In this document: one piece after another, positions 8,109-14,958 of the stretch | How the letters are laid out: every line of letters starts with the position of its first letter | Numbering within the stretch: the stretch's first letter is position 1 | Origin: a virus | Lineage: Duplodnaviria; Heunggongvirae; Uroviricota; Caudoviricetes | IMG/VR virus record: IMGVR_UViG_2778261087_000005 | Length of the DNA stretch: 38,097 nucleotides | Reading direction: 5' to 3' (one strand) | Made by a program: the position numbers and the translations under genes | The notes under the pieces: model-generated | Databases searched by the model: none | What the model was told of the DNA's origin: nothing | What the model saw: only the letters and a program-made list of their open reading frames with translations

Positions 8109-9478
8109 GCCGTTTTATCGATTTGTACGTTGAGCAGGCCGTCATCGGCGGGATCATGCTCGCAGCGGGCCGCACAGACGGCGTTGACATGGCGACTGAC
8201 GCGATTGAGGGGCTGACTGAGGACCACTTCACAGCAACGCCCCATAAAGTGGCTCTGAAGTCCTATAAGCGACTCAACGAATCCGGTTCGAAGATAGACC
8301 TGCTGACGTTGACCAGCGACCTTGAACGGCTTGGCGCGCTGGAAAGTGCCGGGGGATTCGCTTACCTGGCTGAATGCAGCAAAAACACACCGTCGTTCGC
8401 GAACCTTGCCTCGTACTGCGAAAAGTTGCGGGAAATGCATCTCGGCCGCCGGATGACCCTGGCGCTACAGGTAGGGATCCAGAAGCTGTCCGAACCATCC
8501 AGTGAGGGTATCGCTGACATCATCGGCAACATACAGGCCGATATCTCTGGTATTGAGCACAGTGCGGACTATGGCACTGAGCACATCACCACCGGGATCG
8601 ACATGTCGTTAGAGACTATCCAGTCGATTATCAGCGGCGATATCTGGAAGCACAAAACCGAGCTTGGCATGGCAACCATCGACAGCGCTTTTGGCGGGTT
8701 CAACAACACCGATTTCATCGTTGTCGGCGGGCGCCCGGGCATGGGGAAAACCATGTTCAGCACCACCGTGACCGAGACTGTCGGCCTGAAAAACAAAAAG
8801 CCTGTGCTGTTCTTCAGCCTGGAAATGCCAGTTGATCAGATCTCCGAACGTGTCGCGTTCCACCGGGCACGGGTGAGTAAAGAGGATTTACTCAGCAAGC
8901 AGAGCGGCGTAATGGATGGTGCCTGGGGAAAGGTCGGCCACTGCATGAAGGATTTCATCGAAGCCCCGATCTATATCAACGACAAGCCATCCCTCAGCGT
9001 TCATCAGGTGCGAGCGGAAGCCAGGCGAATGAGCAAGAAACTGGGTGGACTTGGTGTGGTCATTGTCGATTACCTCCAGAAGATGCGCATGTCTGACCCT
9101 GAGAACATGAACCGCAGCGTAGGGGAGATCGCCACCGGCCTGAAGAACCTGGCGAAAGAATTGCGTTGCCCGGTCATCGCACTGGCTCAGCTTAACCGTA
9201 AGGTCGAAGAACGTGCTAATAAGCGCCCGGTCGCAGCTGACCTCCGCGAGTCCGGTGTTATCGAGCAGGAAGCCGATGTGATTTTCATGATCTACCGGGA
9301 TGAGAAATACAACCCGAACACCGAACTGAAAGGCATCACCGAAATCATCTGTGTGAAGTCCCGCCATGCGCCGGGGGCAGAAAAGACCTACCACTTCAGC
9401 AGCCGCTACTCAGGCCTGGACCCGGTAGATTTCACCTACAGCGGCCAGATGCAACAGGAGGCTGACTATGAGTGCTAA
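8105..9478 (+). CDS. DnaB-family replicative helicase
   Basis: 457 aa; Walker A GGRPGMGKT and DnaB C-terminal domain motifs; follows the O-like gene as in P22-type replication modules. Confidence 0.85.
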   Translation: MSRFIDLYVEQAVIGGIMLAAGRTDGVDMATDAIEGLTEDHFTATPHKVALKSYKRLNESGSKIDLLTLTSDLERLGALESAGGFAYLAECSKNTPSFANLASYCEKLREMHLGRRMTLALQVGIQKLSEPSSEGIADIIGNIQADISGIEHSADYGTEHITTGIDMSLETIQSIISGDIWKHKTELGMATIDSAFGGFNNTDFIVVGGRPGMGKTMFSTTVTETVGLKNKKPVLFFSLEMPVDQISERVAFHRARVSKEDLLSKQSGVMDGAWGKVGHCMKDFIEAPIYINDKPSLSVHQVRAEARRMSKKLGGLGVVIVDYLQKMRMSDPENMNRSVGEIATGLKNLAKELRCPVIALAQLNRKVEERANKRPVAADLRESGVIEQEADVIFMIYRDEKYNPNTELKGITEIICVKSRHAPGAEKTYHFSSRYSGLDPVDFTYSGQMQQEADYEC

Positions 9479-9782
9479 GACGATGAAAGGCAAACAGGCA
9501 ATTCTGCGTTATCTCGAAACGCACCGGACCTTCACCGCGAAGGATGTGGCCACAGAGTGCGGCATGACCATCAACTGCATCACGAAGAACGCTATCGACC
9601 TGGAGCGGGCCCGCAAGATTGTCCGGGTGAGTAAGGTCTGGCGAACAGTGACTTATCGCCAGGCGACGCCGGAAGAGCAGGCTGGTACCGCGCGCAGCTG
9701 CACCAACGGAATATTTCTGGAGTGCCGGAACAGTCCGGCCATGAAGCGAGTATTGATGGTTTGGGGGAGGGTAGGGGTATGA
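9468..9782 (+). CDS. Hypothetical protein
   Basis: 104-aa ORF; ATG 9468 overlaps the helicase end; stop overlaps the next ATG as ATGA. Confidence 0.6.
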   Translation: MSAKTMKGKQAILRYLETHRTFTAKDVATECGMTINCITKNAIDLERARKIVRVSKVWRTVTYRQATPEEQAGTARSCTNGIFLECRNSPAMKRVLMVWGRVGV

Positions 9783-10067: not shown

Positions 10068-10222
10068 TGCCTTGCCCATACTGCGATGGAAAGGCTGAAT
10101 TTGATTATGACGACGATAACCTCAATTGGATATCTTGTAACGCGTGCGGAATCGCTGCACTTTATGATCATGAGAAGCCCGTGCTGACGGGCACAGAAAA
10201 CAGTACGGGTGCAATAAATTAG
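10067..10222 (+). CDS. Lar-like zinc-ribbon protein (putative restriction alleviation)
   Basis: 51 aa, MPCPYCDGKAEF...x17...CNACG; ATG overlaps the upstream stop (TGATG). Not in the ORF track (below 60 aa). Confidence 0.5.
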   Translation: MPCPYCDGKAEFDYDDDNLNWISCNACGIAALYDHEKPVLTGTENSTGAIN

Positions 10223-10656
10223 TACGAAACAATTATATCAAGCTTTTCTCCAATGATTTTCAAAGAAGAGTAGATGGATTGGCCTGAAGGAGATGGATTA
10301 CTGGAATATGAATTGTTGCCGCCTTCTAAGATGGAAGCTATTAAATTTAGTTGGTGTGACGCTTCAATCACATCGCTGTAAACTGGAGTAAGGCCTATTT
10401 TTGAGAAAAAATTATAGAATGGGATTGCTTTCGATTTTGCAATTAAAAGACCTGATGACGCCTTTAGCTCATGTATTAATTCGCTATTTGGCTTAAAATT
10501 CATTATTTTACTTTGCTCGCGAAGTAAGAGTGACGAAATTCTTCCCAGATGCTCCTTGAACGAGATATACGTTTCCAATGCGCATTTGGTTATTATTTGA
10601 CCTATGACGTAGACGGTCACACCAGTGATAATTGTAGTAAAAACAGTAAGCCACAT
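10219..10656 (-). CDS. Membrane-anchored hypothetical protein (AT-rich cargo gene, antisense to early operon)
   Basis: 145 aa; N-terminal TM helix (WLTVFTTIITGVTVYVIGQII); strongly AT-rich by eye; convergent with the Lar-like gene with overlapping stop codons. Confidence 0.65.
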   Translation of the reverse strand: MWLTVFTTIITGVTVYVIGQIITKCALETYISFKEHLGRISSLLLREQSKIMNFKPNSELIHELKASSGLLIAKSKAIPFYNFFSKIGLTPVYSDVIEASHQLNLIASILEGGNNSYSSNPSPSGQSIYSSLKIIGEKLDIIVSY

Positions 10657-10790: not shown

Positions 10791-10964
10791 ATGCTTCAGG
10801 GTGCCACGCAAGATAGCAACTCTCCGGTGATTCCGGATGGTTGGGTGATGGTTCAGAAGGAGCCAACGCCAGATATGCTTAATGCCGCCTGGGTGTCACA
10901 TGGCATTTACCATGCATCTGCTTATCGTACGATGCTCGCAGCAGCTCCGCAGCAGGTGAAGTGA
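10791..10964 (+). CDS. Small ORF (57 aa), possibly a gene remnant
   Basis: Hand-translated (MLQGATQDSNSPVIPDGWVMVQKEPTPDMLNAAWVSHGIYHASAYRTMLAAAPQQVK); no clear SD; low confidence. Confidence 0.25.
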   Translation: MLQGATQDSNSPVIPDGWVMVQKEPTPDMLNAAWVSHGIYHASAYRTMLAAAPQQVK

Positions 10965-11001
10965 CGAACAAGTTGACGAGAGTTACCATAGATATAAATC
11001 A

Positions 11002-11024
11002 AGGCCCCTAGGGGCCTTTTATTC
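11002..11024 (+). terminator. Intrinsic terminator
   Basis: AGGCCC-ctag-GGGCCU hairpin followed by UUUUAUU. Confidence 0.6.
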
Positions 11025-11057
11025 TATGATAAACGGACTTTGTTTGAGAGTGACGCT

Positions 11058-11384
11058 ATGAAGCCCAAGAAGCTAAATGCTGAGCAGCAATACAAATTAG
11101 ACCTTGAGTTGGTCAAGAAGAAACCTGCGAACCGTACAGAGGCAAAAGCCCATTTGGCGGCGCAGTTACGGATCAGCAAGTACAAGGCGCAGAACTCATC
11201 AAAAATCCGCGCAGGCAGTTTCAGGGGGCGGAAGAAGGTGCATTTCAGTAAGGCCGAAGACGAGGCCAGGGCAGCACTAAATAAAGCCAATGCCATTAGA
11301 TTTTCCGAAGGGGAGGTCGAATCCGTCGATACGGATCGAATCTCAGAAAGTAACAAACGCTGGCGCGGGAGAACTGCTGACTAA
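11058..11384 (+). CDS. Hypothetical basic (Lys/Arg-rich) protein
   Basis: ATG 11058 within track ORF 11040..11384; stop overlaps the next ATG (TAATG). Confidence 0.55.
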
Positions 11385-11632
11385 TGTCTGACTGGAACAT
11401 TGCAGCAAAGCCGCAGGAAGATCGCGATAAGGTTAACGTTGACCTGGCTGCCTCCGGAGTGGCGTACAAAGAGCGCCTGAATATGCCGGTTATCGCTGAG
11501 GTGGTGATGCGCGAGCAGCCAGAGCATTTGCGTGATTACTTCCTTGAGCGCCTGAAGTTTTATCGCGAGAAGTCGATAACTTTACCGAAAGTTAGCGATC
11601 CGTTTTACCTGAAACAGGAGGAAGGGAAGTGA
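11384..11632 (+). CDS. Hypothetical protein (82 aa)
   Basis: Translationally coupled on both sides (TAATG upstream, GTGA downstream). Confidence 0.55.
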
Positions 11633-12279
11633 TTATTGATGAACATTTTAAGGATAGAGTCTCGAGTCATCTATCTCAGAAAATAATCGAAGACGCATTA
11701 AATGGAAGGGGATTTTTCGCCCGAAATGTGTTGGAGTCCATTCGGCTTCTTGAGGGAATGAAGGTTGCCCCATCAACTTTAGCAATGCGTCATCAAGAGC
11801 GTGAATTAAAGGGTGCGTTGGCCGGATTTCATCATATACATGTTTCAGAGGATAATTTCACTCGAGCTTTCAATGCGTACAGGCAAAAAGGAGAAGCGCC
11901 TGAGAAAAATCCATCCGAGCCGGCTTTACAAGGCCGGGGCAATCGCAATGCTATTCAGATGTTTTTGGAGCAAAATGGAGTTAGTGCTAAAGATGCTTCG
12001 TTTGAAGAACTTATCATAAGATTCCAGGATCTTATTGAACAGATGGGAGAAGAAAATGCAAAAGAGCAAATTTCTCGTATTGCTGCTGAGCTATCTTGGA
12101 AACCGTTTAAGGGTAATGATGTAATTTCTGGAGACTGGCTAGTCTATTGGGTGAGACAGGACGGTGTAAGATTTTATATCGATAGTTTTGAACACATCCC
12201 CGCAACCGATACAAAACTGCAGAATTCCACCGCAAATTCATTACACGCCATTCTTCAAAGCATGGATACCGCCGTTTGA
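11629..12279 (+). CDS. Hypothetical 216-aa protein (AT-rich cargo gene)
   Basis: GTG start 11629 with strong SD AGGAGG about 9 nt upstream; visibly AT-rich compared with neighbours; no family recognised. Confidence 0.65.
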
Positions 12280-12452
12280 TTTTCAAGAATCATCCAGCCA
12301 TAATCATGTCATCGGAGCCTGAACAACTCCGGTGACTTCTGCGCATTTAAGGGGACTTAAATGCGACCACAATCTGAACTCTTCACCTTGTCACAGATGC
12401 AGAAATGCACCTGCGATTTTCTACATTCTGCGGTTTCCAATAAGGAGGCCGT

Positions 12453-14062: not shown

Positions 14063-14175
14063 CGCGTGACCAGATTATGCGGTACCAGGCCGAAAGCGTT
14101 AAGCGCGCCAACCTGCCGCCAGTAGCAAACCACAGCCAGAACAAAACCAACCAGCCACATAAGGAAGCCGCATGA
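14059..14175 (+). CDS. Small ORF (38 aa)
   Basis: Hand-translated; overlaps both neighbours; low confidence. Confidence 0.25.
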   Translation: MTRDQIMRYQAESVKRANLPPVANHSQNKTNQPHKEAA

Positions 14176-14861
14176 ACAGTCAGCAACTGGAATACGTACG
14201 TCAGCAGCTCATTGTGGCGACCGCAGATCTGAGCGGGGCGACGAAAGGGCAGCTGGTAGCTTTTGCCGAGAATGCGCAATTCACCGCGACGGCGCGCAGC
14301 CGGGGCCGGAAAAAGGTATTCGACAAGGATAAGCAGCGCATGGTCAACCCGGATGGTCCGCCGATGAGCGGCAGCCAGTCACGCGCTAAGGGCTCGTCTA
14401 TCGCGCTGGTCAGCCCTGTGGAGTTTGGTACCGCGTCATGGCGCCGCGCCGTCCTGTCGCTGGAAGAACACCAGAAAGCGTGGCTGCTGTGGAACTACAG
14501 CGAGAATATCCGCTTCGAATACCAGGTGGCGATCACCCAGTGGGCGTGGGCAGAGTTCCGGGAACAGCTCGGCGCGAAGAAGGTGGCCGGCAAGACGATT
14601 GAGCGCCTGAAGAAGCTTATCTGGCTGGCGGCGCAGGACGTCAAAGCGGAGCTGGCGGGTAAGGATGTGTATCAGCATCAGGACCTGGCCGCCCTGTGTG
14701 GCGTTAAGCCGGATAACTGGTGTCATAACTACGCCGATTACTGGCTTGCCATGTGCGCCATCTTTAAGCGGCTTGATGGCGATTCACTCCTCTGTACTGT
14801 GAGAACACGATCACAACAAAAAGCGACTTTTTCGCAGCAGGGTATTGCAAAAGTCAATTAA
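14172..14861 (+). CDS. Putative late-gene antiterminator (Q position)
   Basis: 229-aa ORF as the last early gene before the lysis cassette; SD AAGGAAG; assignment is from position, family not verified. Confidence 0.45.
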   Translation: MNSQQLEYVRQQLIVATADLSGATKGQLVAFAENAQFTATARSRGRKKVFDKDKQRMVNPDGPPMSGSQSRAKGSSIALVSPVEFGTASWRRAVLSLEEHQKAWLLWNYSENIRFEYQVAITQWAWAEFREQLGAKKVAGKTIERLKKLIWLAAQDVKAELAGKDVYQHQDLAALCGVKPDNWCHNYADYWLAMCAIFKRLDGDSLLCTVRTRSQQKATFSQQGIAKVN

Positions 14862-14926
14862 ATAGCATACTTTTCATGTAAATCTGATATCTTCGCCATA
14901 GCTTTGTAGGACGACAAAGAATTAAC

Positions 14927-14958
14927 AGCCTCGCCATCGTGCGGGGCTTTGTTTTTTG
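14927..14958 (+). terminator. Intrinsic terminator about 65 nt downstream of the Q-position gene (tR'-like)
   Basis: 8-bp stem AGCCUCGC/GCGGGGCU with a 6-nt loop, followed by UUGUUUUUUG. Confidence 0.55.

Follow-up and report, generated by a model that had tools for sequence, protein, structure and literature searches.

The window analysed here is the complete 38,097-nucleotide stretch of the IMG/VR virus record IMGVR_UViG_2778261087_000005 (Caudoviricetes), a lambdoid prophage, and the element in question is a group of three overlapping open reading frames (ORFs), ORF1, ORF2 and ORF3, preceded by a terminator-like hairpin. The genes for O, a DnaB-type helicase and Ren finish at 9782, upstream of the group, and ninB (YbcN), ninE, ninG and Q follow from 12453, so that the group lies between the replication and the nin genes, as the original prediction, made from the letters alone, had described. 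The same prediction had regarded the three genes as a coupled functional unit, such as a regulator with its effector or a toxin-antitoxin-like module, with none of the proteins belonging to a recognisable family. The analysis points to a DNA polymerase III theta homologue in ORF2 and, in ORF3, to a predicted RelE/ParE-type fold interrupted by a helical module. The features of the group are as follows.

11001-11018 (to 11024): terminator-like hairpin AAGGCCCCTAGGGGCCTT followed by a T-run, 7-bp and GC-rich, from a terminator scan
11058-11384, plus strand: ORF1, 108 amino acids
11384-11632, plus strand: ORF2, 82 amino acids
11616-11621, plus strand: Shine-Dalgarno sequence AGGAGG of ORF3, 7 nucleotides before the GTG and within the 3' end of ORF2, read from the sequence
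11629-12279, plus strand: ORF3, 216 amino acids, GTG start

The overlaps on which the proposed translational coupling was based are present and support it: the TAA stop of ORF1 and the ATG of ORF2 share one base (TAATG, 11382-11386), and the TGA stop of ORF2 and the GTG of ORF3 share four (GTGA, 11629-11632). The strong Shine-Dalgarno sequence ascribed to ORF3 was also recovered, and the gene is AT-rich as had been noticed, with a GC content of 0.42 and a GC content at third codon positions (GC3) of 0.36 as against 0.62 for ORF2 and 0.73 for ninB; ORF3 is compositionally foreign. An identical segment is present in six of 5426 E. coli genomes, where RefSeq annotates the same three coding sequences, and the start site of ORF3 is confirmed by an ATG-initiated homologue that also begins MIIDE. 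The terminator expected ahead of the cassette was found with a small correction of its coordinates; it scored as terminator-like on both the plus and the minus strand, and the hairpin (11001-11024) is a predicted tR2-like, perhaps bidirectional terminator. In other E. coli prophages the hairpin accompanies ORF1, the matches beginning at base 5 of the query (position 10954 of the window), and in HK639 a theta gene stands at the equivalent position behind an annotated terminator. No Rfam match was obtained inside the cassette, no sigma-70-like promoter was predicted from the terminator to ORF3, and no promoter or operator was evident upstream. The best explanation of the cassette is a mosaic stretch of the delayed-early (pR) operon of the lambdoid prophage.

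Full-length ORF3 gave no match in Pfam or the PHROGs, and in NCBIfam it drew only the RelE_StbE and YafQ models, weakly, at an E-value of about 0.1. Its likeness to YafQ (of DinJ-YafQ), RelE, HigB and YoeB resides in the motif L-x-G-x-x-x-G-[FY]-x-H-x-H-V-x-E ... D-W-[LI]-[LIV]-Y; the first part of this motif and the segment GDWLVYW..DGVRFY.DSFEH about 92 residues on resemble DHPLQGSWKGYRDAHVEP and DWILIYKLTDKLLRFERTGTH of YafQ, respectively, so that ORF3 looks like one small domain that has been split. When residues 75-167 were taken out by hand in six divergent members of the family before the family scans, YafQ_toxin (PF15738) became the top Pfam family in five of the six (E-values from 3e-4 to 0.07), and RelE_StbE (TIGR02385) was matched by four (7e-4 to 0.015). 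A profile comparison of the insert-deleted family with E. coli YafQ by hhalign gave a P-value of 2.2e-4 and paired R58, H71, E74 and D169 of ORF3 with H50, H63, E65 and D67 of YafQ, and the distance from D169 to H189, 20 residues, equals that from D67 to H87. In YafQ, H50, H63, D67 and H87, together with F91, are catalytic residues, the first four serving in acid-base catalysis (PMC4652777). By alignment and identical spacing, H71, D169 and H189 of ORF3 thus stand at the positions of H63, D67 and H87, and they are invariant or nearly so in the family. The presence of His and Asp counterparts for three of the four catalytic residues favours an RNase-type over a ParE-type member.

Structure prediction is in agreement with this assignment. 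AlphaFold2 provided an unusable model from 21 close homologues alone (predicted local distance difference test, pLDDT, 50), and with the addition of five members of 24-38% identity the pLDDT rose to 89 (86-89 in all five models), with a predicted template modelling score (pTM) of 0.75. The model contains helices at 13-25 and 29-41, a strand at 68-71, four helices within 76-160, strands at 170-175 and 181-187 and a helix at 195-211, which divides ORF3 into three parts.

11629-11853, plus strand: residues 1-75, N-terminal half of the predicted RelE-like core (alpha1 13-25, alpha2 29-41, beta 68-71), which carries R58, K61-G62, H69, H71 and E74, known from the invariant columns and the YafQ alignment
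11854-12129, plus strand: residues 76-167, insert of four predicted helices at the beta2-beta3 turn
12130-12276, plus strand: residues 168-216, C-terminal half of the core (beta 170-175, beta 181-187, alpha 195-211), which carries G168, D169, W170, Y183 and H189

A RelE/ParE-superfamily (YafQ/HigB-like) fold interrupted at the beta2-beta3 turn is, as a model, well supported, and to this extent the toxin-type character suggested for the last gene holds at the level of the predicted fold, whereas at the level of the sequence families ORF3 stays below the PF15738 and TIGR02385 cut-offs. Searches of the PDB sequences with the full-length and the insert-deleted profiles retrieved only designed proteins or crystallins, which are chance matches, and Foldseek found nothing for the model in PDB or BFVD, a blank that we attribute to the insertion.

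The insert, of about 90 amino acids, is the most variable and mosaic part of the protein. In comparisons with relatives of 81-85% identity, the core halves show proportions of synonymous differences (pS) of 0.25-0.32 and 89-99% amino-acid identity, whereas residues 96-160 show pS values of 0.80-0.85 and 51-62% identity; with ORF3 alleles of roughly 60% identity, the insert is only 31-34% identical. This contrast shows that the insert has been swapped as a module by recombination. It may tentatively be described as SAP-like, although sequence models lend no support to a SAP identity.

The family to which ORF3 belongs is tiny, restricted to the Enterobacterales and very rare, and it is nevertheless real and constrained. 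A word-seeded search of 5.8 billion proteins yielded 24 clusters, all at least 58% identical, enterobacterial and labelled 'hypothetical', and among 1.84 billion representatives, searched exhaustively with a profile, there were 10 members, five of which are divergent full-length proteins (24-38% identity) from Serratia where the source is named. ORF3 is present in 6 of 5426 E. coli genomes, a scan of genome collections added one further locus only, and no homologue was found by tblastn of ORF3 and a Serratia homologue in 50,697 phage records, nor in 72,556 PLSDB plasmids. Fifteen columns (R10, S12, L15, L41, E42, K61, G62, L64, H69, H71, N82, G168, W170, Y183 and H189) do not vary in any member of the family, down to 24% identity. 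The ratio of nonsynonymous to synonymous substitution rates (dN/dS) is 0.09-0.17 in all comparable pairs, lineages with a decayed theta gene included, and a ratio of about 0.1 indicates purifying selection. The reading frame is full length in 14 of the 15 lineages inspected. One truncated copy exists (L025).

Two candidate associations of the gene were rejected. Regulation by the SOS response was discarded in view of the lack of a LexA box upstream of any homologue, and an identity with the lxr gene beside hot in phage P1 was discarded when the tblastn search of the phage records and plasmids mentioned above found nothing. In a Serratia marcescens element (L027, 4859-5482), a gene for a UmuD/HumD-like S24 peptidase follows the ORF3 homologue and is preceded by a LexA-box-like sequence, CTGCATATAAAAACAG. 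This arrangement is reminiscent of the hot-lxr-humD gene order of P1, to which no homology was found.

ORF2, one of the proteins said to match no family, is a clear homologue of the theta subunit. It matches PF06440 with 116.8 bits (cut-off 34.6; E-value 3.5e-34) and NCBIfam NF008207 with 106.5 bits (cut-off 97), aligns over residues 1-79 of its 82 with the Hot protein of phage P1 (PDB 1SE7/2IDO; 9.7e-35), also matches PDB 1DU2 (1e-20), and is 62% identical to HolE of E. coli K-12. On this homology ORF2 is an ordinary P1 Hot-type version of the DNA polymerase III theta subunit carried by a phage, a kind already known, and the idea of a novel regulator or antitoxin at this position is not borne out. 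The protein most likely binds and stabilises epsilon, the proofreading subunit of the host polymerase III, as does Hot (the Hot-epsilon complex is PDB 2IDO). It matches P1 Hot in full length and is above the Pfam and NCBIfam cut-offs; it differs from Hot and HolE in its location among the nin genes of a lambdoid prophage and in having a 3' end that doubles as the translation-initiation region of ORF3, and the P1-type phage records have no ORF3 homologue. Mobile theta genes are common, with 85 E. coli records matching at a nucleotide identity of at least 80% and 287 places on plasmids. Theta (HolE/Hot) is, to our knowledge, the least understood subunit of the polymerase III core, and we know of no established reason for its carriage by phages and plasmids.

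ORF1 was described as a Lys/Arg-rich protein of 109 amino acids; it is basic (25% Lys plus Arg, isoelectric point (pI) 10.3) and is one residue shorter, at 108. It belongs to phrog_14068 (E-value 1e-67), a catalogued family of phage proteins with no known function, and in the alignment of its homologues the C-terminal motif KRWRGRTAD is invariant. It has no match in Pfam, NCBIfam, PADLOC or PDB, and its homologues occur only in enterobacterial prophages. Among 24 complete E. coli genomes with ORF1, theta adjoins it in 9 and is lacking in 15, and it is absent from most theta-ORF3 loci elsewhere; on both grounds ORF1 is a separable mosaic unit.

The neighbourhoods of about 18 ORF3 lineages were examined for the linkage of the genes. 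An intact theta gene overlaps the start of ORF3 by four nucleotides in seven lineages, with ORF3 identities from 100% to 61%. In five others, with identities down to 35%, a pseudogene or 3' remnant is all that is left of theta (L005, L036, L012, L028 and L029/30) after decay by internal stops, frameshifts or loss of the N-terminus, and the ORF3 homologue downstream is intact every time. The following are examples of decayed theta upstream of ORF3 homologues.

L012, 4393-5004: one broken theta copy and a second 3' remnant
L028-L030, 3750-3992: decayed theta
L036, 1838-1970: decayed theta

These remnants still end in Y[LQ]K[QE]E.[GE]K and a stop over GTGA; the 3' end of theta, with the Shine-Dalgarno sequence and the GTGATT start of ORF3, is always retained, however far the remaining part of the theta gene has decayed. 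About six lineages (L020, L025, L027, L015, L017 and L019) have no trace of theta, and several of these have ATG starts, their own Shine-Dalgarno sequences and long AT-rich upstream regions; the Serratia copies have long private upstream regions, and the homologues of L015 and L017 adjoin ParAB and an integrase, respectively. The theta-ORF3 pair is ancestral and moves together, being found in the nin region and also in the recT-to-int region of another prophage type. In L026, ORF1 and theta are 92-94% identical to those of the window and the ORF3 allele is 61% identical, a pattern that places a recombination joint at the theta/ORF3 boundary. In other phages (L002, L003, L004, HK639 and others), the place between theta and ninB is occupied by unrelated orphans encoding 73-181 amino acids, none of which has a Pfam family, so that the slot gives no functional hint.

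Thus, no neighbour is conserved next to ORF3 across these lineages, theta being intact in seven, decayed in five and absent in about six, and the conserved adjoining antitoxin gene that characterises type II toxin-antitoxin systems is lacking. The persistence of ORF3, intact and with a dN/dS of about 0.1, after the decay of theta argues against theta as a required antitoxin, with the caveat that the host HolE might substitute for it. The proposal that the three genes form one functional unit does not stand, since ORF1 occurs without theta in 15 of 24 E. coli genomes and ORF3 keeps an intact frame and a signature of purifying selection in lineages whose theta gene is pseudogenised, reduced to a remnant or missing. 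Independent occurrence, which had been named as the observation that would speak against such a unit, was found for ORF1 and in part for theta and ORF3. The other such observation, a match to an ordinary nin-region protein of known function, was not made for ORF3. The suggestion of a toxin-antitoxin or defence module likewise gained nothing from PADLOC or the toxin-antitoxin family models, which gave no significant match for the three proteins; a Cas10_Id stretch (E-value 0.015, 11.6 bits) was judged to be a chance match.

The reading that we favour, at about an even chance of being correct, is that the product of ORF3 is a solitary endoribonuclease of the RelE/YafQ kind, carried by phages and with a variable module inserted into it. 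Its solitary status follows from the lack of a conserved neighbour and from its integrity where theta is a pseudogene. The enzyme would act independently of an antitoxin, with H71, D169 and H189, along with R58 and H69, forming a YafQ-like acid-base site on the face of the beta-sheet, and the module of about 90 residues at the beta2-beta3 turn would serve in recognition of a partner or substrate, or in regulation. ORF3 and Hot would be synthesised from the same N-antiterminated pR transcripts, ORF3 by way of its strong Shine-Dalgarno sequence and the four-nucleotide overlap, and ORF3 may function in RNA cleavage during lytic development or in exclusion of competitors.

Several observations weigh against this reading. 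No curated cut-off is reached even after deletion of the insert, the best scores being 21.5 bits for YafQ_toxin (cut-off 30) and 20.0 bits for RelE_StbE (cut-off 27.9), and the insert-deleted profile drew no RelE/YafQ chain from the PDB sequences. H50 of YafQ is replaced by a conserved Arg (R58), and no equivalent of F91 is evident in the comparison with YafQ. The ORF3 protein of the window is acidic (pI 5.8; core 6.0), whereas YafQ is basic (pI 9.5), and it lacks the basic patches by which ribosome-dependent toxins bind 16S rRNA; other members of the family are basic, with pI values up to 9.45, and charge is therefore not a family trait. Finally, a 10-kDa insert at the beta2-beta3 turn could block entry into the ribosomal A site.

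The lack of a separate conserved antitoxin for a toxin fold would also be expected if ORF3 were a toxin-antitoxin or sensor-effector fusion acting in cis, in which the insert keeps the RelE-like nuclease inactive until it binds a trigger, for example a protein from an infecting phage, so that the gene would be a single-gene determinant of abortive infection or exclusion on prophages and plasmids. A hypervariable, recombining insert is what a specificity or sensor module would look like, stand-alone copies with their own AT-rich upstream regions lie beside an integrase or ParAB on mobile elements, the gene is foreign in composition and moron-like (GC3 0.36), and it is under purifying selection in prophages with a decayed theta. 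The logic would be analogous to that of CapRel or of the CARF-RelE protein Cami1. However, there is no PADLOC match, and with no predicted promoter of its own and a terminator ahead of it in a lytic pR operon, ORF3 should be silent in the lysogen; we consider this explanation unlikely. A similarly doubtful place, slightly below it, is given to a non-nucleolytic, ParE-like or adaptor protein acting on DNA replication with Hot/theta, which might bind gyrase, epsilon, theta or, through the SAP-like insert, DNA, and so tune phage replication. In 12 of the roughly 18 lineages, with ORF3 identities as low as 35% and in both the nin and the recT-int neighbourhoods, ORF3 is directly preceded by theta or its remnant; ORF3 is located in the replication/recombination part of the phage, and the protein is acidic, unlike the ribosome-binding RelE toxins. 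Yet the similarity is specifically to YafQ/RelE RNase models, the invariant His and Asp residues match the YafQ catalytic set, ORF3 persists where theta is dead or absent, the SAP similarity is without sequence support, and the adjacency is also explicable by the theta 3' end providing the ribosome-binding site of ORF3.

The toxin-antitoxin or regulator-effector cassette first conceived, if ORF3 is taken as the toxin and ORF2 and/or ORF1 as the antitoxin or regulator, has the toxin fold, the tight overlaps, a theta-ORF3 overlap conserved in seven lineages and a small protein upstream of the toxin as in relBE and dinJ-yafQ on its side, and the possible substitution by HolE, 62% identical to ORF2, weakens the argument from pseudogenes. 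We nevertheless find it very unlikely, as ORF1 assorts independently of theta/ORF3, five lineages have an intact ORF3 behind a theta pseudogene or bare remnant and about six have no theta, ORF2 matches Hot over its whole length including the C-terminal tail and so has no additional antitoxin domain, mobile theta occurs mostly without ORF3 (85 E. coli records and 287 plasmid matches against six genomes) and no promoter or operator is evident upstream. The intactness of ORF3 where theta has decayed or is absent in itself speaks against a three-gene toxin-antitoxin cassette. A functionless ORF3, the inactive and degenerate remains of a toxin fold carried along in a hypervariable slot, would accord with its rarity (six of 5426 E. 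coli genomes, 10 of 1.84 billion representatives), with the unrelated orphan genes that fill the slot in other phages and with the truncated copy in L025; this reading is highly improbable in the face of dN/dS values of 0.09-0.17 in all comparable pairs, full-length frames in 14 of 15 lineages and 15 columns, putative catalytic residues included, that are invariant down to 24% identity.

A bolder proposal, which we regard as rather unlikely, is either that Hot/theta and ORF3 form a module tying a RelE-fold protein to the theta-epsilon proofreading unit, in which phage Hot or host HolE might be the neutraliser or the target of ORF3, or that ORF3 is a self-contained, trigger-activated nuclease, which might be a single-gene effector of defence or counter-defence with an internal sensor.

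In comparison with the known members of the YafQ/RelE group, the predicted solitary endoribonuclease has a helical module of about 90 amino acids in the beta2-beta3 turn and an extra C-terminal helix, is without a cognate antitoxin gene, scores below every curated family threshold and lies in a phage early operon rather than in an autoregulated two-gene operon. In contrast to the terminal fusions of Cami1 and CapRel, its module is an internal insertion without a CARF domain or known sensor fold, and no defence context was found around it, PADLOC included. RegB of phage T4 is an early-expressed RNase of the RelE/YoeB fold with two catalytic His residues and no known antitoxin (PMC3014915). As a phage protein of this type of fold, predicted in the case of ORF3, it is the best analogy for the possible action of ORF3; the two have no sequence relationship, RegB lacks an inserted domain and requires ribosomal protein S1, and ORF3 comes from temperate phages and plasmid-like elements.

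ORF3 may represent a new variant within a known superfamily, one that bears an insertion, lacks an antitoxin and has been missed by annotation resources: Pfam, NCBIfam, the PHROGs and PADLOC do not detect it, and all its copies in databases bear the label 'hypothetical protein'. If it is an active nuclease, an insertion-regulated, antitoxin-free architecture would be added to the RelE superfamily, and ORF3 would be a second case, after T4 RegB, of phages using the RelE fold for their own ends. The family is a rare one, born in translational coupling to a phage theta gene, and this ancestral tie is unexplained; should an interaction with theta or epsilon exist, it would provide a handle on theta biology. 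The case also illustrates that a tight stop/start overlap in the nin region of a phage does not by itself imply a functional cassette.

Other observations concern the surroundings of the cassette. On the plus strand, the helicase gene is followed by a gene at 9468-9782 for a Ren-like exclusion protein of 104 amino acids (phrog_142, E-value 2e-33), so that the region already has one accessory gene of the exclusion type. Between the ren-side genes and the cassette, on the minus strand and antisense to the pR operon, lies a moron-like gene (10219-10656) for a protein of 145 amino acids with a hydrophobic N-terminus (phrog_7512, function unknown), situated in an island of 36-41% GC and annotated by RefSeq only in a shorter version of 94 amino acids. 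The plus-strand ORF of 57 amino acids at 10791-10964 matches only the C-terminal ends of DUF551-type proteins (positions 161-215 of 220 in phrog_12449). In L002 an intact DUF551 gene stops just before the same hairpin and ORF1, and the 57-residue ORF of the window therefore appears to be a 3' remnant left by the acquisition of the AT-rich minus-strand gene.

Downstream of ORF3, the non-coding stretch at 12276-12450 (plus strand) upstream of ninB is 80-97% conserved in many lambdoid phages; its counterparts are 'IR4' in phi80 and, in phage 82, putative -35/-10 elements, a 'possible regulator-binding site' and orf33. It contains a promoter-like sequence (TTGATT-17-CATAAT, 12276-12304) and a weak terminator-like hairpin (12398-12415), and of the 2784 E. 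coli records that the query 10950-12450 matched, the majority apparently match in this stretch alone. The only match in the window above the Rfam gathering threshold is isrJ (RF01393, 54.8 bits, full length) at 14877-14950 on the plus strand, which starts 16 nucleotides past the stop of the Q antiterminator gene (14172-14861), a position suggesting that the 'IsrJ sRNA' family is the short pR'-tR' leader transcript of this type of Q.

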